Source: a virus
Lineage: Duplodnaviria > Heunggongvirae > Uroviricota > Caudoviricetes
Length of the DNA stretch: 13,352 bases
Direction: 5' to 3' (one strand)
Virus record (IMG/VR): IMGVR_UViG_2690316028_000011
Shown here: piece by piece, positions 1 through 13,352 of the stretch
Numbering within the stretch: position 1 is the first letter of the stretch
Layout: every line of letters starts with the position of its first letter
The notes under the pieces: model-generated
Told to the model about the DNA's origin: nothing
Seen by the model: the letters and a program-made list of their open reading frames with translations, nothing else
Databases searched by the model: none
Program-made: the position numbers and the translations under genes

Positions 1-69
1 AAGATATGATGTGATGGCATTTTATAAAGTTATTTTTTGAAGTGTAAGATTATACGATATTTTTAGCTA

Positions 70-100
70 CGCCAGAATAATTGCTGGCGTTTTTCTTTTT
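70..100 (+). terminator. Intrinsic terminator upstream of the holin gene (possibly the tR'-like late terminator, or the terminator of an upstream gene)
   Basis: Perfect 6-bp stem CGCCAG (70-75) / CTGGCG (84-89) with an 8-nt loop, followed by TTTTTCTTTTT (90-100). Not followed by a T-run on the opposite strand. Confidence 0.55.
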
Positions 101-190
101 GAATAGATGTTCGGGCCTTACGCTAATGTAACTTCTTTCCTTCTTCGAACCAAACCGTGTACACCATCCGTTATCTGCGGAGGTGAGGCT

Positions 191-406
191 ATGAAATCCA
201 TGGATAAGTTAACAACGGGCATCGCCTACAGCACCTCTGCAGGCAGTGCTGGCTACTGGTTTTTACAGTTGCTCGATAAAGTCACGCCCTCACAGTGGGC
301 GGCAATAGGTGTATTGGGTAGTCTGGTATTTGGCATGCTGACGTATCTGACAAACCTTTATTTCAAGATTAAAGAAGACAGGCGTAAGGTTGCGAGAAGA
401 GAGTAA
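191..406 (+). CDS. essQ: Phage-21-type class II holin (pinholin) with dual-start motif M-K-S-M
   Basis: 71-aa product [25 protein letters not shown]...[17 protein letters not shown] matches the S21/EssQ pinholin pattern with two predicted TM segments. Strong SD GGAGGTGAGG lies just upstream of the ATG at 191. The six-frame ORF (107..406) extends upstream, but the RBS supports 191. Confidence 0.85.
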
Positions 407-410
407 TCCA

Positions 411-962
411 ATGACTCAAGACTATGAACTGGTTGTGAAAGGAGTTCGCAATTTTGAGAATAAAGTGGCGGTAACTGTAGCCTTACGGGACAAAAAACAC
501 TTTGACGGTGAAATTTTTGACCTGGACATCTCGCTGGACCGTGTTGAAGGTGCCGCGCTGGAGTTTTATGAGGCAGCAGCCAGAAGGAGCATCAGACAGG
601 TCTTCCTGGATGTTGCTGCCGGGTTATGTGAAGGGGATGAGCAGTCGTCGGAAAAGCGCCCCATAATTTTAGAGGCGCAGAATGTGTGGATAACCTACAA
701 AGGAAAGCTACCGGGAAGAATTACTGGTTCTCTGAAGACGCCACCGACGGCATTGCGGTCAGAAAAAGATGATATTGAATCGCCCATTGAAAAACTGGAG
801 GGCAGCGTCGCTGATCTGAATAAAAAATTGTCGGTGCTGATTCCTTCTGAAGATGAAAAAAAACGCCGCGATGAGCAGTTTGCGGCGTTTTACGATTATT
901 GCATTGAAGTTACTCGCAGGAATTTTGTGAAGATTTTTGAGGAGGGTAAATCTCTTCAGTAA
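411..962 (+). CDS. Uncharacterised acidic protein (183 aa) inserted between holin and endolysin
   Basis: ORF 390..962 opens with TTG; the first ATG is at 411, preceded by AGAGAG and immediately after the holin stop. Composition looks like normal coding sequence. No family recognised. Confidence 0.5.
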   Translation: MTQDYELVVKGVRNFENKVAVTVALRDKKHFDGEIFDLDISLDRVEGAALEFYEAAARRSIRQVFLDVAAGLCEGDEQSSEKRPIILEAQNVWITYKGKLPGRITGSLKTPPTALRSEKDDIESPIEKLEGSVADLNKKLSVLIPSEDEKKRRDEQFAAFYDYCIEVTRRNFVKIFEEGKSLQ

Positions 963-1170
963 GCTTATTGGCGGACGCTGCAATTAATTCAGGAAGGTCC
1001 GCAAGGTCATCTGTCAGTGGATATGATGAAAAATCGGCGGCAGTTCTGTTAAGAAGCGCTTTAACTAATTCCTTTTCCTTCTCCGGCAACAAGTTGATTA
1101 GAGCTACGACTGCTTGCCTGAGTGCGATTAAATCAGCAAAAGTTTGTTTTGGTAGATTTGTGTAATCCAT
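910..1170 (-). CDS. Uncharacterised small protein (86 aa), convergent with the preceding ORF
   Basis: ATG at 1170 on the minus strand is preceded by GAGG about 7 nt upstream. Its 3' end overlaps the 411..962 ORF by 53 bp. This position corresponds to where ydfR sits in K-12 Qin, but I cannot confirm identity. Confidence 0.45.
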   Translation of the reverse strand: MDYTNLPKQTFADLIALRQAVVALINLLPEKEKELVKALLNRTAADFSSYPLTDDLADLPELIAASANKLTEEIYPPQKSSQNSCE

Positions 1171-1283
1171 AGTCGCCTCTGTGTTTATCAGATTGACATC
1201 CTCCTCCCGCCAGTGCCCATCACTGGTGAGGTAAGATTTAACATATCCGGGGATTTGAAGCCGATAAATCCTGATAAATATCC

Positions 1284-2311
<1,028 letters not shown>

Positions 2312-2494
2312 ATTAATATTAAATCGGATTATTTTTAGCGCTGAATGTGAAATTTAAATAAAAAGGACTCTTCCATGAGTCAAAATCCTTGAAATCTTAA
2401 GGGTAAGATAAAAGGTCATTAGACAGAATGACACGTTTTATTAATAAATAAAGCTATTGTTTCATTCGTGTGTTTTTCTTTACAAAAGTAATCC

Positions 2495-2523
2495 TTGCTA
2501 TGGTTGGTTAATCATGCGTTAAT
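2495..2523 (+). promoter_or_regulatory. Candidate sigma70 promoter for cspI with long AT-rich 5' UTR
   Basis: TTGCTA (2495-2500), 17-bp spacer, GTTAAT (2518-2523; compare cspA -10 CTTAAT). Would give a 5' UTR of roughly 145 nt, typical of the cspA family. Sequence-pattern inference only. Confidence 0.3.
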
Positions 2524-2674
2524 GGTGTTCTGGTTTGTTACAAAATTATCTGAAGCAGTCATTGTTATAATTTTATTATTTGTACCTCTTGAGATTTCCT
2601 TGTTGGTTTTTCTCTCTGATATTTTTTTTCGGACCATTCTGCCCAAGGGCTAACTTCTTCAAAAGGTAATAATG

Positions 2675-2887
2675 ATGTCTAACAAAATGACTGGTTTAGT
2701 GAAATGGTTTAACCCTGAAAAAGGTTTTGGTTTCATCACGCCGAAAGATGGTAGCAAAGATGTGTTTGTCCATTTCTCAGCTATTCAGAGCAACGATTTC
2801 AAAACGTTAACTGAGAATCAGGAAGTCGAATTTGGTATTGAGAACGGACCTAAAGGCCCCGCGGCTGTTCATGTTGTGGCACTTTGA
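2675..2887 (+). CDS. cspI: Cold-shock protein, CspA family
   Basis: 70-aa product [38 protein letters not shown]... carries the RNP1 (KGFGFI) and RNP2 (VFVHF) motifs. SD AAAGG with cspA-like spacing. The six-frame ORF begins one codon earlier at 2672. Confidence 0.9.
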
Positions 2888-3086
2888 GGTAGAAAATATT
2901 ACAAACCATATTCACTTTAGATGCCCGTGTTGCCATGGTTCTCAGTATAGAACATCATCTTTTGATGTTTCTGACAGGAATCCTTTCGGGGCAAAATGTA
3001 TCTTTTGTAAATCAATGATGATTACATTTGATAATATTTCACAATACTTAAATGTTAGCCGTCTGTCGTTAGATTTAAGAAAGTGA
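2871..3086 (+). CDS. Possible small zinc-ribbon protein (71 aa) immediately downstream of and overlapping the cspI 3' end
   Basis: Product contains C-P-C-C ... (about 20 aa) ... C-I-F-C, a zinc-ribbon-like arrangement. The ORF stop at 3086 is followed 7 nt later by a strong intrinsic terminator. The RBS is weak and the ATG at 2871 is the only ATG start, so this stays low confidence. Confidence 0.25.
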
Positions 3087-3092
3087 AAATGA

Positions 3093-3114
3093 AGGCTCCT
3101 TCGGGAGCTTTTTT
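3093..3114 (+). terminator. Intrinsic terminator
   Basis: Stem GCTCC (3095-3099) / GGAGC (3104-3108) with TTCG tetraloop, followed by TTTTTT (3109-3114). Confidence 0.5.
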
Positions 3115-3158
3115 GCTTAGTGTCTAGTCGATGGATACTCACATATTACGGTAACATT

Positions 3159-3389
3159 ATGAAAAAAATAATAGTTTTTTTTAACTCTGAACCAGCAATG
3201 GTAGTGCCAGTGATGACCGGAGTTAACACCATCATGCGTGAATATCCAAATGGCGAAACAACACACCTCACTGTAATGGCTGCAGGGTTTCCATCTCTGA
3301 CCGGAGATCATAAAGTCATTTATGTAGCAGCGGATCGACATGTAACTTCAGAAGAAATTCTGGAAGCAGCAATGAGACTCTTGAATTGA
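3159..3389 (+). CDS. ynfN: Small prophage protein, YnfN/YmcE-like (partner gene upstream of gnsB)
   Basis: ORF 3120..3389. ATG at 3159 (MKKIIVFFNSEP...) gives 76 aa. An internal ATG at 3234 gives the 51-aa product MREYPNGETTHLTV..., which matches the length I recall for K-12 YnfN. The true start is uncertain and the RBS is weak for both. Confidence 0.5.
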   Translation: MKKIIVFFNSEPAMVVPVMTGVNTIMREYPNGETTHLTVMAAGFPSLTGDHKVIYVAADRHVTSEEILEAAMRLLN

Positions 3390-3561
3390 TTTGATTCTAA
3401 TGCATTGATAATAAATGATAATCATCTTTATCTGTTTGTGTGAAATTTAGACCGTCGTATGTTGATTATTGCGATGTTTCATCTTATCTTTTATACGTTT
3501 GCTCCATATAATTGACACTACTGTGTACCAGGAAAGTCATAACAGACTAAAAGAGGAAATG

Positions 3562-3735
3562 ATGAACATTGAAGAGTTAAAAACAAAAACAGAAGCAGAT
3601 ATTTCTGAATATATAACAAAAAAAATCATTGAGCTTAAGAAAAAGACCGGGAAAGAAGTTACCAGTATCCAGTTTACTGCACGGGAAAAAATGACTGGTC
3701 TTGAAAGCTATGATATCAAGATTGATTTAATCTAG
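3562..3735 (+). CDS. gnsB: GnsA/GnsB family small protein (57 aa)
   Basis: MNIEELKTKTEADISEYITKKIIELKKKTGKEVTSIQFTAREKMTGLESYDIKIDLI, preceded by SD AAGAGGAAA. Matches the GnsA/GnsB family of prophage-encoded proteins. Confidence 0.85.
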   Translation: MNIEELKTKTEADISEYITKKIIELKKKTGKEVTSIQFTAREKMTGLESYDIKIDLI

Positions 3736-3797
3736 TCTGTTTATAGTATTAGCATCAATTTCTCATCAGATGCTATTCAACAATACAAATTACCCAT

Positions 3798-3823
3798 AAA
3801 CCTCGTTTTTACGGGGTTTTGTT
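3798..3823 (+). terminator. Intrinsic terminator after gnsB
   Basis: AAACCTCG (3798-3805) pairs with CGGGGTTT (3812-3819), one G-U wobble, loop TTTTTA, followed by a T-rich tract. Confidence 0.45.
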
Positions 3824-4030
3824 ATATTTAAACATTACCGAATAGGTATAAATCTCGATTGTCGATGGTATTGGTTGTGTGACAATACCTAATCTTTCCG
3901 GTATGCGTGAAGAGAATACAAACGACAGATTATGTAAGGGAAACGCGCTGAATCTTTCACTCTTTCATGCTGAGTGATTTGACGTTATATTTTTAGCCGT
4001 AAGTGAAGAGCAAACGCATGGAGCGACAAA

Positions 4031-4237
4031 ATGCATAAAGATCAATACACTGATGCCCCCTCCCAGGAGCAGGTTCGTGTAAAAACTATGCTTAATAGCA
4101 CCATTTCGATGGGTTACCCGGATGTTGTAATTGCATGTATAGAACATCAAGTGTCTCTGGAAGCATTCAGGGCAATTGAGGCCGCGTTAGTAAAGCACGA
4201 TAAGAATACGAAGGATTATTCCCTGGTGGTTGACTGA
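4031..4237 (+). CDS. Hypothetical small protein (68 aa)
   Basis: ATG preceded by GGAG 7 nt upstream. No recognisable family. Lies in the AT-rich cargo region between gnsB and cos. Confidence 0.4.
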
Positions 4238-4603
4238 TCACCATAACTGCTAACCATTCTGACCATTTCACAAGTGACAGAGTCAATATCGTATTCTGTC
4301 ACTGTCAGGCTAATACAGCAATGCAATTCAACTACAGCAATGCCTCGTATTTAGGTGAATTTACAATATCGTCCAGTTCGGATGCCGGCTGCATTTCTGA
4401 AGATAAGGCATTTCGGTTCTCGTATTTTCCCCTCATGCTCGTCAGTCCTGCGCGTAGTAAGAAACAGGACACTCACACTAATTTGTGTGGGCATGCAGTG
4501 ATGTCCTTCTGAATTATCCCCATGCCATTATGTAAAGCTCTGTTACAGATGCTCGTCACGGTTGTCAGGCTGTCGGGTCCTCCCAGTGAGGGGCCCTGCC
4601 ACG

Positions 4604-4615
4604 GGGCGGGAGCGT
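4604..4615. other. cosN-like cohesive-end site (lambda-type cos)
   Basis: ACGGGGCGGGAGCGTCGCGG (4601-4620) aligns with the lambda cos junction ACGGGGCGGCGACCTCGCGG (differences fall within the 12-nt cohesive end), followed by a cosB-like AT-rich region with a 7-bp perfect inverted repeat CTGTAAT/ATTACAG (4662-4683). The small terminase gene starts about 175 bp downstream, as in lambda. Confidence 0.6.
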
Positions 4616-4789
4616 CGCGGAAAAAGGCTAGTTTTTGAAATTTTATTCGTCATCACCACTACTGTAATTGATTGGTATTACAGTGGTTTTATTTTTATGG
4701 TGTCGATTCTGATTGTTTTTTGTTCATCGCTAACACCGTTTGCCTAAAGTTGTTCGCAAGATGCATGTTTAAAACATTCTGGAGCGGGT

Positions 4790-5284
4790 ATGGATCGAGA
4801 GTTAAAAAATCTGACGCTGAATATCAGTCAACTGGCGGCATTGTCAGGTGTACATCGCCAGACTGCTGCGGCAAGGCTGCAAAATCTACCCGTTGCAGGG
4901 GGGCATGAAAGCAACCTCAAGCTTTATCGGGTGGTTGATATTGTGTCGGCATTTCTGGCATTACCACCGCCGGTTGCAGAAGGCGAAATGGACGCGCATG
5001 AGCGCAAAGCCTGGTATCAGTCTGAACGTGAGCGTCTTAAGTTCGAACAGGAAACGGCACAACTCATTCCGGCCAGTGATGTCAGACGGGAGTTTGCCAT
5101 CTGGGCAAAAGCGGTCGTGCAGGTGCTGGAGACATTACCGGATATTCTTGAACGTGACTGCGGTCTGCAGCCTGCCGCTGTGAGCCGTGTTCAGTCCATT
5201 ATTGATGATCTGCGCGATCAGATAGCCCTGCGGGTGACTGAAGCAGGTGCGGATGATGAGGAGGAATTACAGCAGGAGGAGTAA
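4790..5284 (+). CDS. Terminase small subunit (Nu1-like DNA packaging protein)
   Basis: 164-aa product with an N-terminal HTH-like segment (LNISQLAALSGVHRQTAAARL) and acidic C-terminus. Sits directly downstream of cos; its stop overlaps the start of the large terminase gene (TAATG at 5282-5286). SD GGAG upstream. Confidence 0.7.
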   Translation: MDRELKNLTLNISQLAALSGVHRQTAAARLQNLPVAGGHESNLKLYRVVDIVSAFLALPPPVAEGEMDAHERKAWYQSERERLKFEQETAQLIPASDVRREFAIWAKAVVQVLETLPDILERDCGLQPAAVSRVQSIIDDLRDQIALRVTEAGADDEEELQQEE

Positions 5285-5919
5285 TGCTGAATCAGGAAAC
5301 CGCAAAGGCAGCACGAACCGATTCAGGTTATATCCTTCGCGCACCGAGACGAATGCGGGTTGCTGATGCCGTTGCTCAGTATATGCGGGTGCCCATGGGG
5401 GCAGGGAACTCAGTCCCGTGGGATCCGCTGGTGGCACCGTATGTTATTGAGCCTATGAACTGCCTGGCCTCGCGTGAATACGACGCAGTGATATTTGTTG
5501 GCCCGGCACGAACCGGCAAGACTATCGGCCTGATTGACGGCTGGGTGATTTACAACGTGATTTGCGATCCTGCGGATATGCTGATCATTCAGATGACAGA
5601 GGAAAAAGCCCGCGAACACTCCAAAAAACGACTCGCCAGAACGTTTCGCGTCAGCCCGGAAGTGGTCAGTCGCCTGAGTCCGAACAAAAATGACAACAAC
5701 GTTTATGACAGAACATTCCTTGCTGGCAACTACCTGAAAATCGGCTGGCCGTCAGTCAATATCATGTCCTCATCAGATTATAAATGCGTCGCGCTGACGG
5801 ATTATGACCGTTTTCCGGAAGATATTGATGGCGAGGGGGATGCCTTCTCTCTTGCCTCAAAACGTACCACCACATTTATGTCCAGCGGTATGACGCTGGT
5901 GGAGAGTTCCCCCGCTGGC
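5284..5919 (+). pseudogene. Terminase large subunit (gpA-like), N-terminal fragment truncated by deletion
   Basis: Walker-A-like VIFVGPARTGKT and gpA-family ATPase-domain pattern. Homology ends about codon 205-210; the ORF then reads out of frame into gpI-derived sequence and stops at 5988. A full gpA is about 640 aa. Confidence 0.75.
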
Positions 5920-6433
5920 CATGCAGATCCCGGCGTTTCGTCAGAAACTGAGCGACGGCTGGTACCAGGTACGCATTGCCGGGCGTGATGCAGGTGAAAC
6001 CGAATTGTCTGCCCGTCTTAATGAGCCGCTGGCAAATGGTGCCGTGATCCACATCGTGCCGCGTCTGGCGGGAGCTAAAAGTGGCGGTGTGTTTCAGGTG
6101 GTGCTGGGGGCGGCGCTGATTGCGGTGGCATGGTGGAACCCTGTGGGCTGGCTGGGTGCCGCGGCTGTATCGGGCATGTATGCGGCAGGGGCCAGTATGA
6201 TCCTGGGCGGAGTGGCGCAGATGCTGGCACCGAAAGCCAGGACGCCCACGGCAGCAAGTACAGATAACGGCAAACAGAACACCTATTTCTCCTCACTGGA
6301 TAACATGGTTGCCCAGGGCAATGTTCTGCCTGTTCTGTACGGGGAAATGCGCGTGGGGTCACGCGTGGTTTCTCAGGAGATCAGCACGGCAGACGAAGGG
6401 GACGGTGGTCAGGTTGTGGTGATTGGTCGCTGA
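5912..6433 (+). pseudogene. Lambda gpI-like tail assembly protein, C-terminal fragment (fusion partner of the terminase remnant)
   Basis: From LAMQIPAFRQKLSDGWYQVRIAGRD... to ...VVSQEISTADEGDGGQVVVIGR aligns with the C-terminal roughly 175 residues of lambda gpI. The N-terminal ~45 codons are missing and a stop lies in frame just upstream at 5891. Confidence 0.8.
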
Positions 6434-6452
6434 TGCAAAATGTTTTATGTGA

Positions 6453-6473
6453 AACCGCCTGCGGGCGGTTTTG
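6453..6473 (+). terminator. Stem-loop with T-tract between the gpI remnant and the J-like gene (terminator-like; function uncertain)
   Basis: AAACCGCC (6453-6460) / GGCGGTTT with loop TGCG, followed by TTTTG. The equivalent hairpin exists in lambda between I and J. Confidence 0.35.
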
Positions 6474-6493
6474 TCGTTTATGGAGCGTGAGGA

Positions 6494-9469
6494 ATGGGTA
6501 AAGGCAGCAGTAAGGGGCATACCCCGCGCGAAGCGAAGGACAACCTGAAATCCACGCAGCTGCTGAGTGTGATTGATGCCATCAGCGAAGGGCCGGTTGA
6601 AGGTCCGGTGGATGGATTAAAAAGCGTGCTGCTGAACAGTACGCCGGTGCTGGACAGTGAGGGGAATACCAATATATCCGGCGTCACGGTGGTGTTCCGG
6701 GCAGGTGAGCAGGAGCAGACTCCGCCGGAGGGGTTTGAATCCTCCGGCTCCGAGACGGTGCTGGGTACGGAAGTGAAATATGACACGCCGATCACCCGCA
6801 CCATTACGTCGGCAAACATCGACCGTCTGCGCTTTACCTTCGGTGTACAGGCACTGGTGGAAACCACCTCAAAGGGTGACAGGAATCCGTCGGAAGTCCG
6901 CCTGCTGGTTCAGATACAGCGTAATGGTGGCTGGGTGACGGAAAAAGACATCACCATTAAGGGCAAAACCACCTCGCAGTATCTGGCCTCGGTGGTGGTG
7001 GATAACCTGCCACCGCGCCCGTTTAATATCCGGATGCGCAGAATGACGCCGGACAGCACCACAGACCAGCTGCAGAACAAAACGCTCTGGTCGTCATACA
7101 CCGAAATCATCGATGTGAAACAGAGCTACCCGAACACGGCACTGGTCGGCGTGCAGGTGGATTCGGAGCAGTTCGGCAGCCAGCAGGTGAGCCGTAATTA
7201 TCATCTTCGCGGGCGTATTCTGCAGGTGCCGTCGAATTATAACCCGCAGACGCGGCAATACAGCGGTATCTGGGACGGAACGTTTAAACCGGCATACAGC
7301 AACAACATGGCCTGGTGTCTGTGGGATATGCTGACCCATCCACGCTACGGCATGGGGAAACGTCTTGGTGCGGCGGATGTGGACAAATGGGCGCTGTATG
7401 TCATCGGCCAGTACTGCGATCAGTCAGTACCGGACGGCTTTGGCGGCACGGAGCCGCGCATCACCTGTAATGCATACCTGACCACACAGCGCAAGGCGTG
7501 GGATGTGCTCAGTGATTTCTGCTCGGCGATGCGCTGTATGCCGGTATGGAACGGGCAGACGCTGACGTTCGTGCAGGACCGACCGTCGGATAAGGTGTGG
7601 ACCTATAACCGCAGTAATGTGGTGATGCCGGATGATGGCGCGCCGTTCCGCTACAGTTTCAGCGCCCTGAAAGACCGCCATAATGCCGTTGAGGTGAACT
7701 GGATTGACCCGGATAACGGCTGGGAGACGGCGACAGAGCTTGTTGAAGATACGCAGGCCATTGCCCGTTACGGTCGTAACGTCACGAAGATGGATGCCTT
7801 TGGCTGTACCAGCCGGGGGCAGGCGCACCGCGCCGGGCTGTGGCTGATTAAAACGGAACTGCTGGAAACGCAGACCGTGGACTTCAGCGTGGGTGCGGAA
7901 GGGCTTCGCCATGTACCGGGGGATGTCATTGAAATCTGCGATGATGACTATGCGGGTATCAGCACCGGCGGGCGCGTGCTGGCGGTGAACAGCCAGACCC
8001 GGACGCTGACGCTCGACCGTGAAATCACGCTGCCATCCTCCGGTACCACGCTGATAAGCCTGGTTGACGGTCAGGGTAATCCGGTCAGCGTGGAGGTCCA
8101 GTCCGTCACCGACGGCGTGAAGGTGAAAGTGAGCCGTGTTCCTGACGGCGTTGCAGAATACAGCGTGTGGGGGCTGAAGCTGCCGACGCTGCGCCAGCGC
8201 CTGTTCCGCTGCGTGAGTATCCGTGAGAACGATGACGGCACGTATGCCATCACCGCCGTGCAGCATGTACCTTCTGCCCGTAAGGTGAATGGTAAGGCGC
8301 TTTCAGCGGATATAACACTGACGCCGAAAGATATTGGTACGCTTAACTCAACAACAATGTCATTCAGCGGTGGTGCTGGTTGGTTCAAATTAGCAACGGT
8401 AACCATGCCACAGGCGAGTTCTGTTGTTTCAATTACGTTGATTGGTGGCGCGGGATTTAACGTGGGGTCACCTCAACAGGCAGGTATATCTGAACTTGTT
8501 TTGCGTGCAGGTAATGGTAATCCGAAGGGGATTACTGGTGCTTTATGGCAGCGCACATCGACAGGGTTTACAAATTTTGCCTGGGTCAATACATCTGGTG
8601 ATACTTACGATATTTACGTTGCAATCGGAAATTATGCGACTGGTGTAAATATTCAATGGGATTATACCAGTAATGCCAGCGTGACGATTCATACGTCACC
8701 AGCATATTCTGCTAATAAGCCGGAAGGGTTAACGGACGGTACAGTTTATTCACTCTATACGCCATCAGAGCAGTTTTATCCGCCTGGCGCACCAATCCCG
8801 TGGCCATCAGATACCGTTCCGTCTGGCTATGCCCTGATGCAGGGGCAGACTTTTGACAAATCTGCATACCCGAAACTTGCAGCCGCTTATCCGTCAGCCG
8901 TGATCCCTGATATGCGTGGCTGGACGATTAAGGGCAAACCCGCCAGTGGTCGTGCCGTATTGTCTCAGGAACAGGACGGCATTAAATCGCACACCCACAG
9001 CGCCAGCGCATCCAGTACGGATTTGGGGACGAAAAACACATCGTCGTTTGATTACGGAACCAAATCCACGAATAACACCGGGGCGCATACCCATAGTATT
9101 AGCGGGACTGCAAATAGTGCCGGTGCGCACCAACACAAGAGTTCCGGTGCATTTGGTGGCACGAACACGAGCATTTTCCCTAATGGTTATACCGCGATTT
9201 TAAATCTAAGCGCGGGGATTATGAGCACAACAAGCGGTAGTGGCCAGACTCGTAATGCAGGGAAGACATCATCAGATGGTGCTCATACCCACTCGCTGTC
9301 CGGCACTGCTGCAAGCGCAGGCGCACATGCACATACTGTCGGTATTGGTGCTCATACGCACTCCGTTGCGATTGGTTCACATGGACACACCATCACCGTT
9401 AACGCTGCTGGTAACGCGGAAAACACCGTCAAAAACATCGCATTTAACTATATTGTGAGGCTTGCATAA
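6494..9469 (+). CDS. Chimeric tail tip / tail fibre protein: lambda J-like N-terminal ~593 aa fused to a side-tail-fibre-like C-terminal domain with His-rich repeats
   Basis: N-terminus [24 protein letters not shown]... through ...[10 protein letters not shown] is near-identical to lambda host-specificity protein J. After nt ~8272 the sequence diverges, GC content drops, and the C-terminus carries repeated G-A-H-T-H-S / AHAHT / SHGHT motifs like those of Stf/T4 gp37-type fibres. Strong SD GGAG/GAGG upstream. Confidence 0.9.
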
Positions 9470-10044
9470 TGGCATTCAGAATGAGTGAACAACCACAGAC
9501 CATAAAAATTTATAATCTGCTGGCCGGAACTAATGAATTTATTGGTGAAGGTGACGCATATATTCCGCCTCATACAGGTCTGCCAGCAAACAGTACCGAT
9601 ATTGCACCGCCAGATATTCCGGCAGGCTTCGTGGCTGTTTTCAACAGTGATGAGGCATCGTGGCATCTCGTTGAAGATCATCGGGGAAAAACCGTCTATG
9701 ACGTGGCTTCCGGCGACGCGTTATTTATTTCTGAACTCGGTCCGTTACCGGAAAATGTTACCTGGTTATCGCCGGAAGGGGAGTTTCAGAAGTGGAACGG
9801 CACAGCCTGGGTGAAGGATACGGAAGCAGAAAAACTGTTCCGGATCCGGGAGGCGGAAGAAACAAAAAACAACCTGATGCAGGTAGCCAGTGAGCATATT
9901 GCGCCGCTTCAGGATGCTGCAGATCTGGAAATTGCAACGGAGGAAGAAATCTCGTTGCTGGAAGCATGGAAAAAGTATCGGGTATTGCTGAACCGTGTTG
10001 ATACGTCAACTGCACAGGATATTGAATGGCCAGCACTGCCGTAG
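9469..10044 (+). CDS. tfaQ: Tail fibre assembly protein (Tfa)
   Basis: 191-aa product [39 protein letters not shown]... matches the TfaQ/TfaR family. Start overlaps the stop of the upstream fibre gene (TAATG), indicating translational coupling. Confidence 0.9.
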
Positions 10045-10141
10045 GGTAAAACATATAAATTCTATAATTAGATGTATCTTTCCATTTACGGCAAGGAAGG
10101 GGGCTTGGAACACGTAAAGCATCTCACACCGAGATTATTTT

Positions 10142-10732
10142 TTATATGTCAGGTGTCTGAAGTTTTGCTTTGGCTCTTAAAATGGTTTGCCGCGAGGTTT
10201 TGAATTCCCGGGCAATGGCACTTATACTTACACCTGACTTAATTCGTTCGAATACCACCTGTTTCTGTTCTTCATTTAACACAGGTGGTCGACCAAAACG
10301 TTTCCCTGCGCCGCGGGCTCTTACTATCCCGGAATGAGTGCGTTCAAGTAAAAGGTCTCGTTCAAATTCAGCGACTGCTGAAATTACTTGCATCATCATT
10401 TTTCCTGTTGGACTGGTCAGGTCAATGCCACCCAATGCTAAGCAATGCACTCTGATACCTGTTTCGGTCAGTTGTTCCACTGTTTTCCTGATATCCATTG
10501 CATTACAACCAAGGCGATCCAGTTTTGTCACAATCAATTGATCACCACATTTCAGGCGAGCAAGCAACCGGTTAAAACCAGGACGCTCACTGGTTGCTGC
10601 TGAGCCGCTAATGTGTTCTTCGATTATTTGCTGAGGTTTGATTTTAAAACCTGCACTTTCGATTTCCCGGCGTTGATTTTCGGTGGTCTGATCCAGCGTT
10701 GATATCCGACAGTAAGCAAAAATTCGAGACAT
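10142..10732 (-). CDS. pinQ: Serine recombinase, DNA-invertase (Pin) family
   Basis: 196-aa product [20 protein letters not shown]... with the catalytic-serine motif (R-I-S-T-x-D-Q) and a C-terminal HTH ([18 protein letters not shown]). Matches PinQ/PinR. Convergent with tfa. Confidence 0.9.
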
Positions 10733-11049
10733 AGTGAGACTCTATTCGAAATTGGTGTTCATATCATAATGCATCTCAGAAAATAATTATGATTATTTTT
10801 GTGCATATTTGTATGTACACGTTCGAAAATAAACGAATGCGTATGCAACCCCGTAATTTTTGGTGAGACCCAAAATCGATTTTGTGAAAAATGGCTTTAA
10901 CTCGGTTTGTTTTTCGAGTTCCGGGCGGACTCAAGGAAGAAGAATAGTGTTGCGTGTTATTTTAACCAGATTTCAAGTTGTTTGGACGTGGAAAAGTGGA
11001 GCAAAATGTTGTTAAAGTGGAAAAATGATAAAAAAGTAAGTTTATTATA

Positions 11050-11283
11050 TTACATTTTACCATTTAAATTTTGGTTGTCTTTAAGAACTGATATCGCTGT
11101 TTGTAATAATTCTTTGTTATCCAGCCATGATTTTTTCTTTATGTTTCCTTCAATGTAATCAAGCAATGTTCTGGTATTAATAGGTCTTCCCTGTTTTGCT
11201 ACTTCCACTACAGCATCCCCTAGGATAATTCTTACTTCAGGAAGCTGCGCAGGGAACCACTTTAGGGTGTCTTTTGATTTCAT
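11050..11283 (-). CDS. ydfK: Small prophage protein YdfK/YnaE family (cold-shock-induced in K-12)
   Basis: 77-aa product MKSKDTLKWFPAQLPEVRIILGDAVVEVAKQGRPINTRTLLDYIEGNIKKK... The six-frame ORF extends to 11316 but the internal ATG at 11283 matches the known family start. Confidence 0.85.
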   Translation of the reverse strand: MKSKDTLKWFPAQLPEVRIILGDAVVEVAKQGRPINTRTLLDYIEGNIKKKSWLDNKELLQTAISVLKDNQNLNGKM

Positions 11284-12068
11284 GAAGATATTCCTTAAAA
11301 TATTATTGATTTTCATTGCGATATTGTATGTCTGATTCAGGATATGTTGACTTATACATCGGTTTTGTCTGGGTTATTGGATATGCCAATCCCTAATTTT
11401 ATTAGGGCATGACTAAAAATGCTGAATATGATAAGGAGAGAAGTGATTATCAGTATGCTGTTCATATAGCCTCGAATTAGTAATGTGTTATATATGATAT
11501 AGTTGACAATTTTTATCTTGGGTGTTTTTAAAGTTCGTAGATAAACATTGTCGTTTCAGGTATACAGGAATGCTAGCAGGTGGCAGCAAAAATCAGGCGG
11601 TTTATGGCGCAAGCTGAAGCGGCAACTGCAAACTATCTTATGCAGAGACTCTACACGGATTGGGTTTAAAAGTATACATAGATAACAGTTTTTATCTGAA
11701 AAAGAAAAATATCAAGGTGATATAGCCTATATGCCTTTGATGCGGAGGAATGACTGTGATGGGAGTGATGTATCTGAATAGTTGAAAAACCGCAGACACG
11801 CCTTATGCAAGAACGTGCTGCGGTTGGCTGGTAAATTTTTCGATAGTGTGAGTATTGAATGATTTCCAGCCGTTCTTGATTTTACGCATAAATCCATGAA
11901 AAAACTACTTATCTGTTGGGGAGTTTTTTTGGGGCATATATGGGACAGAAATAGGCCCCAGATAGACACTGAGATCGAACTTAGGATGCTTTTTAAAAAA
12001 TGCAACTATCTGAAAAAACCTAGAAAACGCCAAGGAAACCACAGGATGGGAAAAAACACCTGTGAATT

Positions 12069-13352
12069 ATGGATTTCCAGTTATATTCGCTCGGCGCAGC
12101 GTTAGTGTTTCATGAAATATTTTTTCCTGAATCATCAACGGCAATGGCGTTAATTCTGGCAATGGGAACCTATGGTGCAGGTTATGTGGCGCGTATTGTC
12201 GGAGCATTTATTTTCGGCAAAATGGGCGACAGAATAGGGCGTAAAAAAGTGCTCTTTATTACCATCACCATGATGGGGATCTGTACCACCTTAATTGGAG
12301 TGTTACCGACCTATGCACAGATTGGTGTTTTTGCCCCCATCTTGCTGGTGACGCTGCGTATTATTCAGGGATTGGGTGCAGGTGCGGAAATTTCCGGTGC
12401 CGGTACGATGCTGGCGGAATATGCGCCAAAAGGTAAGCGCGGAATTATCTCCTCATTTGTGGCTATGGGAACTAACTGCGGAACCTTAAGCGCAACGGCA
12501 ATCTGGGCCTTTATGTTCTTCATTCTCAGTAAAGAGGAACTGCTGGCGTGGGGATGGCGTATACCGTTCCTGGCGAGCGTTGTCGTGATGGTCTTTGCTA
12601 TCTGGTTACGTATGAATCTGAAAGAAAGCCCGGTCTTTGAGAAGGTTAACGACAGCAACCAACCGACAGCAAAACCTGCACCTGCTGGTAGCATGTTCCA
12701 GAGCAAATCCTTCTGGCTGGCAACAGGGCTGCGTTTTGGTCAGGCGGGTAACTCCGGTTTAATTCAGACTTTCCTTGCAGGCTATTTAGTACAGACGTTA
12801 TTGTTTAACAAAGCAATTCCAACAGATGCATTGATGATCAGTTCGATTCTCGGCTTTATGACCATTCCGTTCCTTGGTTGGTTATCCGATAAAATTGGTC
12901 GCCGGATCCCGTATATTATTATGAATACCTCTGCGATTGTGCTGGCGTGGCCAATGCTTTCTATCATCGTAGATAAAAGCTATGCCCCGAGCACCATTAT
13001 GGTTGCACTGATTGTGATTCATAACTGTGCGGTGCTGGGATTATTTGCTCTGGAAAACATTACCATGGCAGAAATGTTCGGCTGTAAAAACCGCTTTACC
13101 CGGATGGCTATTTCAAAAGAAATTGGTGGTCTTATCGCTTCCGGTTTTGGTCCTATCCTGGCGGGTATTTTCTGCACCATGACGGAATCCTGGTATCCGA
13201 TCGCCATTATGATCATGGCATATTCAGTAATTGGTTTAATCTCTGCGCTGAAAATGCCAGAGGTGAAAGACCGTGATTTAAGTGCGCTGGAAGACGCTGC
13301 GGAAGATCAACCGCGTGTTGTAAGAGCTGCGCAACCTTCCAGAAGTCTGTAA
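12069..13352 (+). CDS. ydfJ: MFS transporter (metabolite:H+ symporter family), N-terminally truncated at the prophage junction; likely non-functional
   Basis: 427-aa ORF with MFS signatures (GKMGDRIGRKK, multiple TM helices, WGWRIPF, LSDKIGRR). Compared with ProP-like homologues the first ~35-40 residues (first half of TM1) are absent. No convincing SD before the ATG. Stop codon coincides with the window end. Confidence 0.85.
   Translation: MDFQLYSLGAALVFHEIFFPESSTAMALILAMGTYGAGYVARIVGAFIFGKMGDRIGRKKVLFITITMMGICTTLIGVLPTYAQIGVFAPILLVTLRIIQGLGAGAEISGAGTMLAEYAPKGKRGIISSFVAMGTNCGTLSATAIWAFMFFILSKEELLAWGWRIPFLASVVVMVFAIWLRMNLKESPVFEKVNDSNQPTAKPAPAGSMFQSKSFWLATGLRFGQAGNSGLIQTFLAGYLVQTLLFNKAIPTDALMISSILGFMTIPFLGWLSDKIGRRIPYIIMNTSAIVLAWPMLSIIVDKSYAPSTIMVALIVIHNCAVLGLFALENITMAEMFGCKNRFTRMAISKEIGGLIASGFGPILAGIFCTMTESWYPIAIMIMAYSVIGLISALKMPEVKDRDLSALEDAAEDQPRVVRAAQPSRSL

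Follow-up and report, generated by a model that had tools for sequence, protein, structure and literature searches.

Within the window, by which we mean the whole stretch of 13,352 nucleotides analyzed here, the beginning of a gene for the large terminase subunit runs directly into the remainder of a tail assembly gene, gpI, that is read in another frame. This arrangement raises the question of which event joined the two genes, and whether that event was of the same kind as the one behind a second junction in the same window.

The Qin locus and its gene order

From its boundary and gene order, the window is assigned to the cryptic lambdoid prophage Qin of E. coli, of which it is the late-gene (right) half, ending in a truncated ydfJ. 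The right boundary between prophage and host falls within ydfJ, and contigs of the same sequence run on into ydfI, ydfZ, and rspR. Likewise, the late region has the order found in Qin, essQ-ydfR-rrrQ-rzpQ-cspI-ymcF-ynfN-gnsB ... stf-tfaQ-pinQ-ydfK-ynfT. In the window, ydfR is truncated, gnsB is followed by a small terminase gene (terS) of the DUF1441 family, and between terS and tfaQ lie a fragment of the large terminase gene (terL), a gpI fragment, and a J'::'stf fusion; pinQ is on the minus strand, and the series ends with ydfJ' after ynfT.

The annotated Qin of 027_SK3 is 99.5% identical to the window and collinear with it over 1–5016 and 8267–13352. The Qin of MG1655 matches at 98.8% over 8772–13352 and at 92.8% over 1274–3733, with nothing matching between these. 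The reference junction of K-12, nohA::stfQ, is absent from the window; in K-12, the Nu1-type nohA joins stfQ further inside stf. On this comparison, the window is a decay allele of the Qin locus other than that of K-12.

One stretch of the left part (611–1273) holds the truncated ydfR and an 86-aa open reading frame (ORF) on the minus strand (910–1170). The window shares this stretch with the 027_SK3 type; QDFD216, EC21Z-137, and MG1655 lack it and have a full ydfR.

The features that frame the two junctions are as follows:

4740..4789, plus strand: putative cos region, directly upstream of the small terminase gene
4790..5284, plus strand: small terminase subunit gene, complete, DUF1441 family, 164 aa (Pfam PF07278, E 3e-41)
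9469..10044, plus strand: tail fiber assembly gene tfaQ (comparison with annotated Qin, Pfam)
10142..10732, minus strand: small serine recombinase gene pinQ (comparison with annotated Qin, Pfam)
12069..13352, plus strand: truncated host gene ydfJ (3' part), the right prophage/host boundary of Qin (comparison with Qin records)

The linear genomes of mEp460, mEp460_ev081, and Ayreon have left ends that map to position 4765, which places cos just upstream of the small terminase gene. The matching small terminase in MB53 and QDFD216 is annotated as a DUF1441 protein. The packaging module, for which the original prediction had taken lambda as its reference, is more precisely mEp460-like: it combines a DUF1441 small subunit with a GpA-family large subunit (TerL) of 700 aa, and is not lambda Nu1/A itself. 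The same prediction had cos and the small terminase gene retained on one side of a deletion, and the end of gpI together with J on the other. The first half of this statement stands, as terS is intact; the second needs amending, as J is truncated at codon 592.

The terminase–gpI junction

In megablast searches against phages and 5,426 complete E. coli genomes, homology to terL stops at 5914, and homology to gpI begins at 5913. The terL homology is shared with mEp460-type phages and many E. coli prophages at 99–100% identity. An intact allele at the same chromosomal locus was found in E. coli MB53 (NZ_CP073939.1), between the dicB side of Qin and ydfJ. Window positions 2391–5914 align to this prophage at 99.29% identity, and positions 5913–8271 at 99.70%, resuming 13.2 kb further on; in the numbering of the MB53 segment, the terL side is aligned up to 8895, the I side from 22109, and the J side up to 24467. 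The features at this point, hereafter junction 1, are:

5284..5914, plus strand: terL', the first 210 codons and one base of a GpA-family terminase gene, ATPase domain only (99.3% to MB53)
5895..5902, plus strand: Chi site GCTGGTGG, 11 nt left of junction 1, in the orientation that halts RecBCD arriving from the deleted side
5913..5914, no strand: deletion junction 1, a 2-bp microhomology (CG) common to the terL and gpI parents (three-way alignment with MB53)
5913..6433, plus strand: 'gpI, tail assembly gene I from codon 43 to its stop (99.7% to MB53)
5915..5988, plus strand: 24 out-of-frame codons and a stop that end the terL' ORF, being gpI DNA read in the wrong frame (ORF list, translation)

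In the three-way alignment, with a slash marking the breakpoint, the terL side reads ...GAGAGTTCCCCCG/GCAGGG, the I side ...CATCCGGGCG/CTGGCCATG, and the window ...GAGAGTTCCCCCGCTGGCCATG. The flanks are collinear with MB53, 13,215 bp are absent from between them, and the ends overlap by CG with no filler, which together are the marks of a short-homology illegitimate deletion. No IS element or repeat was found at the junction.

Junction 1 joins TerL codon 210/211 (of 700) to gpI codon 43 (of 215), close to the codons of about 205 and about 45 that had been estimated earlier, and the reading frames differ across it, with an ORF at 5284–5988 in the terL frame and one at 5921–6433 in the I frame. 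A fusion of terminase and gpI in different frames, originally placed at 5890–5925, is thereby confirmed by the homology end points, by Pfam domains, and by identity to MB53. The breakpoint, which had been put within about 15 bp, is now narrowed to the 2-bp overlap at 5913–5914 by the alignment to an intact prophage that had been proposed as a check.

Missing between the two ends are the nuclease half of TerL, a gene for a 70-aa connector protein, the portal gene, a gene for a ClpP-like protease/major capsid fusion, a DUF2190 gene, head-tail and tail-completion genes, the tube gene, G, T, the tape measure gene, M, L, K, and the first 42 codons of I. The list of lost genes in the original prediction thus agrees with the comparison to MB53, while the size of about 15 kb given there comes down to 13.2 kb.

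Both remnants can be recognized for what they are. Residues 1–210 of TerL' are identical (210/210) to the 700-aa TerL of MB53 and are followed by 24 out-of-frame residues. The GpA_ATPase domain (PF05876) covers residues 41–223 of the resulting 234-aa ORF (E 1e-52, profile positions 2–186 of 247) and is cut by junction 1; the C-terminal nuclease half of the protein, about 700 aa at full length, is missing. With only residues 1–210 of 700 left, terL' is a fragment of a gene rather than a working member of the GpA family. On the other side, the first in-frame ATG of 'gpI lies at 5921 and corresponds to Met46 of gpI. The 170-aa ORF that starts here is identical at 170/170 residues to positions 46–215 of the 215-aa gpI of MB53, and its beginning matches only profile positions 38–83 of 83 of Lambda_tail_I (PF06805, E 2e-8), where full-length gpI proteins have about 215–223 aa. 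From this identity, the ORF clearly derives from a gpI that has lost its N-terminus. The domain and identity data together exclude the alternative that both reading frames belong to a single unrelated gene.

A survey of E. coli for intact and deleted alleles, likewise proposed at the outset, returned the intact allele of MB53 and a deleted allele that, beyond the complete RefSeq genomes, is no rarity. Junction 1 was not found in any of the 5,426 complete RefSeq E. coli genomes; matches of at least 77% to window positions 5400–6400 in these genomes were composites of different deletions only. A public assembly collection has the exact 234-aa fusion ORF in 131 blocks, with carriers that include GCA_037022425.1, GCA_000264115.1, and several SRA and ENA assemblies. 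Window positions 2622–13352 are 100% identical to one SRA assembly. Judged by these matches, junction 1 is clonally inherited. In the same clone, two later deletions are nested in the window sequence: one lacks positions 7960–9340, with a 5-bp GGTAT overlap, and the other lacks positions 6663–9650, with a 5-bp TGAGG overlap. The assemblies that carry them are otherwise 99.95–100% identical to the window, several exactly 100%, which indicates that stepwise erosion is ongoing in one clone.

Comparable deletions occur in other strains. At the Qin locus of EC21Z-137 and CT29, terL codon 151 is joined to I codon 61 with an AT filler (6573–6576, segment numbering). In W13-16 and three ETEC strains, terL codon 272 is joined to K codon 151 in a different prophage (7696–7698, segment numbering). 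Strain AJ1 has a junction between a Nu1-type nohD and gpI, with a gpI endpoint that lies about 10 nt upstream of the one in the window (about 1880, segment numbering). The endpoints in EC21Z-137 and AJ1 are not at the same nucleotide as that of the window. The AJ1 deletion is independent of junction 1; the deletion in EC21Z-137 is most simply read as independent too, since the Qin of that strain is about 96% identical to the window, compared with more than 99% for MB53. Among deletions that run from a packaging gene to K or I in other prophages, the right endpoints may cluster in the 5' part of gpI, an impression that is partly due to ascertainment.

For a view of whether either endpoint of junction 1 recurs, IMG/VR was searched for the 23-mers immediately to the right and left of it. 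The right 23-mer had the normal gpI left flank in 120 of 120 other loci, and the left 23-mer continued as terL in all of about 125 other loci. With a single normal flank in every control locus, neither endpoint is recurrent, and the scans of both sides rule out that junction 1 marks a hot spot or the site of a recombinase. The 13.3-kb window contains three Chi sites, all on the plus strand, and the closeness of one of them to junction 1 is roughly a 1-in-100 to 1-in-400 coincidence, noticed post hoc in a single case. Together with the AJ1 endpoint in gpI about 10 nt away, it gives a hint that the endpoints are maybe not wholly random.

Point S in stf

A second junction lies downstream, where the gene for the tail tip protein J has been joined to the side tail fiber gene stf:

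6494..8271, plus strand: J', the first 592 codons of the tail tip protein J (MB53 alignment; NCBIfam lambda_TipJ, positions 1–597 of 1163)
8267..8271, no strand: deletion junction 2, J codon 592 joined to stf, overlap GTACC, with TA at 8268–8269 (MB53 alignment)
8267..9469, plus strand: 'stf, the C-terminal 400 codons of the side tail fiber, in frame with J' (Pfam Collar, residues 765–812)

The J' part contains the Pfam domains FNIII-A_GpJ and Phage-tail_3. Homology to J ends at 8271, which is codon 592 of 1137 in MB53, and homology to stf begins at 8267. The loss amounts to 4,135 bp, comprising the rest of J, lom, and the N-terminal part of stf, and leaves a J'::'Stf ORF of 991 aa (6494–9469). 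Within stf, about 240 bp (8502–8740) are present in the window and 027_SK3 and missing from MB53, where stf is annotated as frameshifted.

The stf nucleotide used at junction 2, hereafter point S, is used elsewhere as well. In 027_SK3 and five other complete genomes, terS codon 76 is joined to stf at this very nucleotide. The 027_SK3-type allele equals the window minus positions 5017–8266; it could go back to the window type, with S used a second time, or to an intact ancestor by an event of its own. More generally, the exact 23-mer at S, CCTTCTGCCCGTAAGGTGAATGG, was present in 126 loci, of which 99 had the normal stf left flank and 27 had one of 21 different left flanks. All 21 are joined to S at the same nucleotide, at ..TA/CCTTCTGCCCGTAAGG. 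The at least 21 partners of S compare with 0 of about 120 loci at each of the two control sites beside junction 1. The partners are spread over the whole intact prophage, with terS, a W-like gene, the portal gene (inverted), the protease-capsid gene, the tape measure gene, K, lom, and two sites each in J and stf; others belong to different types of phage, gpA and a Nu1-type NohA gene among them.

A TA dinucleotide marks the crossover in the partners too. For 19 junction types, an uninterrupted parent was found by BLAST, and in 15–16 of these 19 parents TA lies exactly at the crossover, with one mismatch in the other 3. Chance alone would give TA at about 1 site in 16, for which a hand calculation gives a binomial tail of the order of 1e-15. 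Furthermore, the base before TA (−3) is always that of the partner, and the base after it (+1) is always that of S (C). The exchange is therefore confined to 2 bp, and a 4-bp stagger is excluded; a gyrase-like 4-bp staggered exchange at GTAC was rejected on these grounds.

A complete IMG/VR scan for the normal left flank of S returned one exception among 109 stretches. The right flank of this exception is the exact remainder of the inverted portal partner, and the metagenome in which the exception occurs also contains the portal::S junction. The two contigs thus hold both junctions of a reciprocal inversion (portal nt 1060 with S) in which no base was lost; it is a single example, and the portal::S inversion junction was present in no complete E. 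coli genome. Among species-representative genomes, the S motif occurred once only, in Shigella flexneri.

About 6 of the 21 S junctions are in frame, which is the chance expectation, so that the in-frame J'::'Stf fusion is probably due to chance and not to selection. Selection for in-frame fusions to the C-terminus of Stf was set aside for the same reason.

Taken by their sequences, the S junctions look like the products of conservative site-specific recombination between one primary site and many quasi-sites, as with a serine recombinase. Tentatively, and with somewhat less than even confidence, we suggest that S (G/TA/CCTTCTGCCCGTAAGG) may be a solitary and so far undescribed site on which a conservative recombinase acts, with a TA crossover of 2 bp; such an enzyme would join the C-terminal cassette of the fiber to quasi-random TA sites in lambdoid prophages and so produce inactivating deletions and inversions. 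No description of this hot spot was found in the searchable literature, which speaks only weakly for its novelty.

Candidates for the enzyme are small serine recombinases, for example of the PinQ/PinR class, whose genes in Qin and Rac lie 0.7 kb downstream; pinQ is 0.7 kb beyond tfaQ. PinQ is about 36% identical to invertases of the Cin/Gin type (Cin, Gin, HK225), and about as far from γδ resolvase. It has been reported to invert the P segment of e14 at canonical sites (PMC12529663). The functional phage HannyBb carries an identical PinQ beside different tail fiber genes. Linkage of pinQ in cis to S junctions (7/15 versus 15/54) was not significant.

Several other types of site were considered for S and rejected. 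The crossover site of Din-family invertases is 26 bp long with the pattern ..AAACC NN GGTTT.., and a consensus scan of the window gave no such core near S, which speaks against a Din-type (gix/hix/cix/pix) site. The pix site of e14, CCTTCTCCCAAACCAA, has only CCTTCT-CC in common with S, an alignment that would put the crossover 14 nt off; no pix-like site was found anywhere in the window. There is no dyad symmetry at S beyond GGTACC. No second copy of S, inverted or direct, was found in the window, in MB53, or in about 125 S-bearing loci, which speaks against S as the end of an invertible segment or mobile cassette. No second hot spot was found at the tfa end of the conserved block, and neither cos nor the attR region of the window resembles S. 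As the region around S folds no better than shuffled sequence, a single-strand mechanism of the hairpin or HUH type is unsupported.

Origin of junction 1 and comparison with known systems

The anatomy and distribution of junction 1 make it very probable that it arose by a single short-homology illegitimate deletion inside a Qin-type prophage and was then inherited clonally. An intact ancestor similar to MB53 would have lost 13,215 bp, its ends joining at the 2-bp CG. Replication slippage or copy-choice may have been the molecular route, as may the joining of ends after a break; in the latter case, one possibility is that RecBCD resection stopped at the Chi site at 5895–5902. As a 2-bp identity is barely above chance, the event may also have been independent of homology. 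The deletion would have left the 234-aa TerL' ORF with its frameshifted tail and the 5'-truncated gpI, both of them dead. The prophage can no longer make particles, because the nuclease half of TerL and all head, connector, and tail-shaft genes have been removed.

That junction 1 was made by one event, as originally proposed, is what we infer as the parsimonious reading. It is unprovable, because nested deletions occur in the same clone: those at 7960–9340 and 6663–9650, documented in assemblies that match the window on both sides, lend some support to a scar built up by two or more successive nested deletions. Against such a succession, no intermediate allele was seen in the 5,426 complete genomes or among the eight contigs listed, of 25, that bear the 234-aa fusion ORF, and junction 1 has no filler or leftover piece of any intervening gene; we regard it as improbable. 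Recombination between prophages, or with an infecting phage, would instead have brought terL from one source and I-J from another. Near-identical terL or I-J segments do occur in several prophages per E. coli genome (median 2–3 matching places), and the identities of the two flanks to MB53 differ slightly (99.3% versus 99.7%). However, the best match of both flanks is a single prophage at a single locus, in the expected order and orientation, which makes this origin very unlikely, and the parents share no homology at junction 1 beyond 2 bp.

The least credible alternative is that junction 1 was made by the same site-directed process, a recombinase with a preferred site, as the junctions at S. 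It is brought to mind by junction 2, which lies 2.3 kb off on a strongly recurrent crossover point, and by the independent nohD::I deletion of AJ1, which ends about 10 nt from the gpI endpoint of the window. However, no other partner was found at either side of junction 1 in about 120 loci each, the overlap is CG rather than the TA of S, and the endpoints of AJ1 and EC21Z-137 are at other nucleotides; we give this possibility next to no weight. The preferred reading, a single short-homology deletion, makes junction 1 a case of routine prophage decay, that is, a further deletion allele of a well-known defective prophage.

As such, junction 1 is a clean and datable decay marker, which gives a base-pair view of a Qin-type prophage losing its particle genes and tags a clone in which later steps of erosion can be ordered. 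Beyond this, the window is of value because in it a random microhomology scar lies beside a scar on which at least 21 independent rearrangements converge. If S does reflect a recombinase acting on tail fiber genes, it would point to directed prophage inactivation and reshuffling of fiber cassettes in E. coli.

Among known prophages, the Qin of K-12 MG1655 (b1543–b1579) is like the window in its locus (truncated ydfJ, then ydfI), in its gene order, and in being a defective prophage of the lambdoid type whose morphogenesis genes have been lost. It differs in that nohA is fused to stfQ, elsewhere in stf, and in having no remnants of terL, I, or J, whereas the window keeps the DUF1441 terS, terL', 'I, and J', with two other junctions. 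The MB53 prophage (99.3–99.7%) and the mEp460-type phages (98.9–99.3%) resemble the flanks of the window and have the same packaging module, and MB53 has the same I-J region. Unlike the window, the MB53 prophage and the mEp460 relatives keep the 13.2 kb that separate terL codon 211 from I codon 43, and MB53 also keeps the 4.1 kb from J codon 592 to point S.

Prophage decay by short-homology illegitimate deletion, with 2–5 bp of identity, no filler, removal of structural genes, and vertical inheritance, is well known, and junction 1 shows no difference of substance from such deletions. For S, the closest parallel is found in the Int-promoted deletions of lambda (b2 type), in which the fixed crossover point of att is joined to variable secondary sites. 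S differs from these in not being an att site and in having a core of 2 bp (TA), compared with a 7-bp overlap. What the two have in common is one endpoint that is fixed to the nucleotide, a wide range of partners in cis, and a short core that the partners share.
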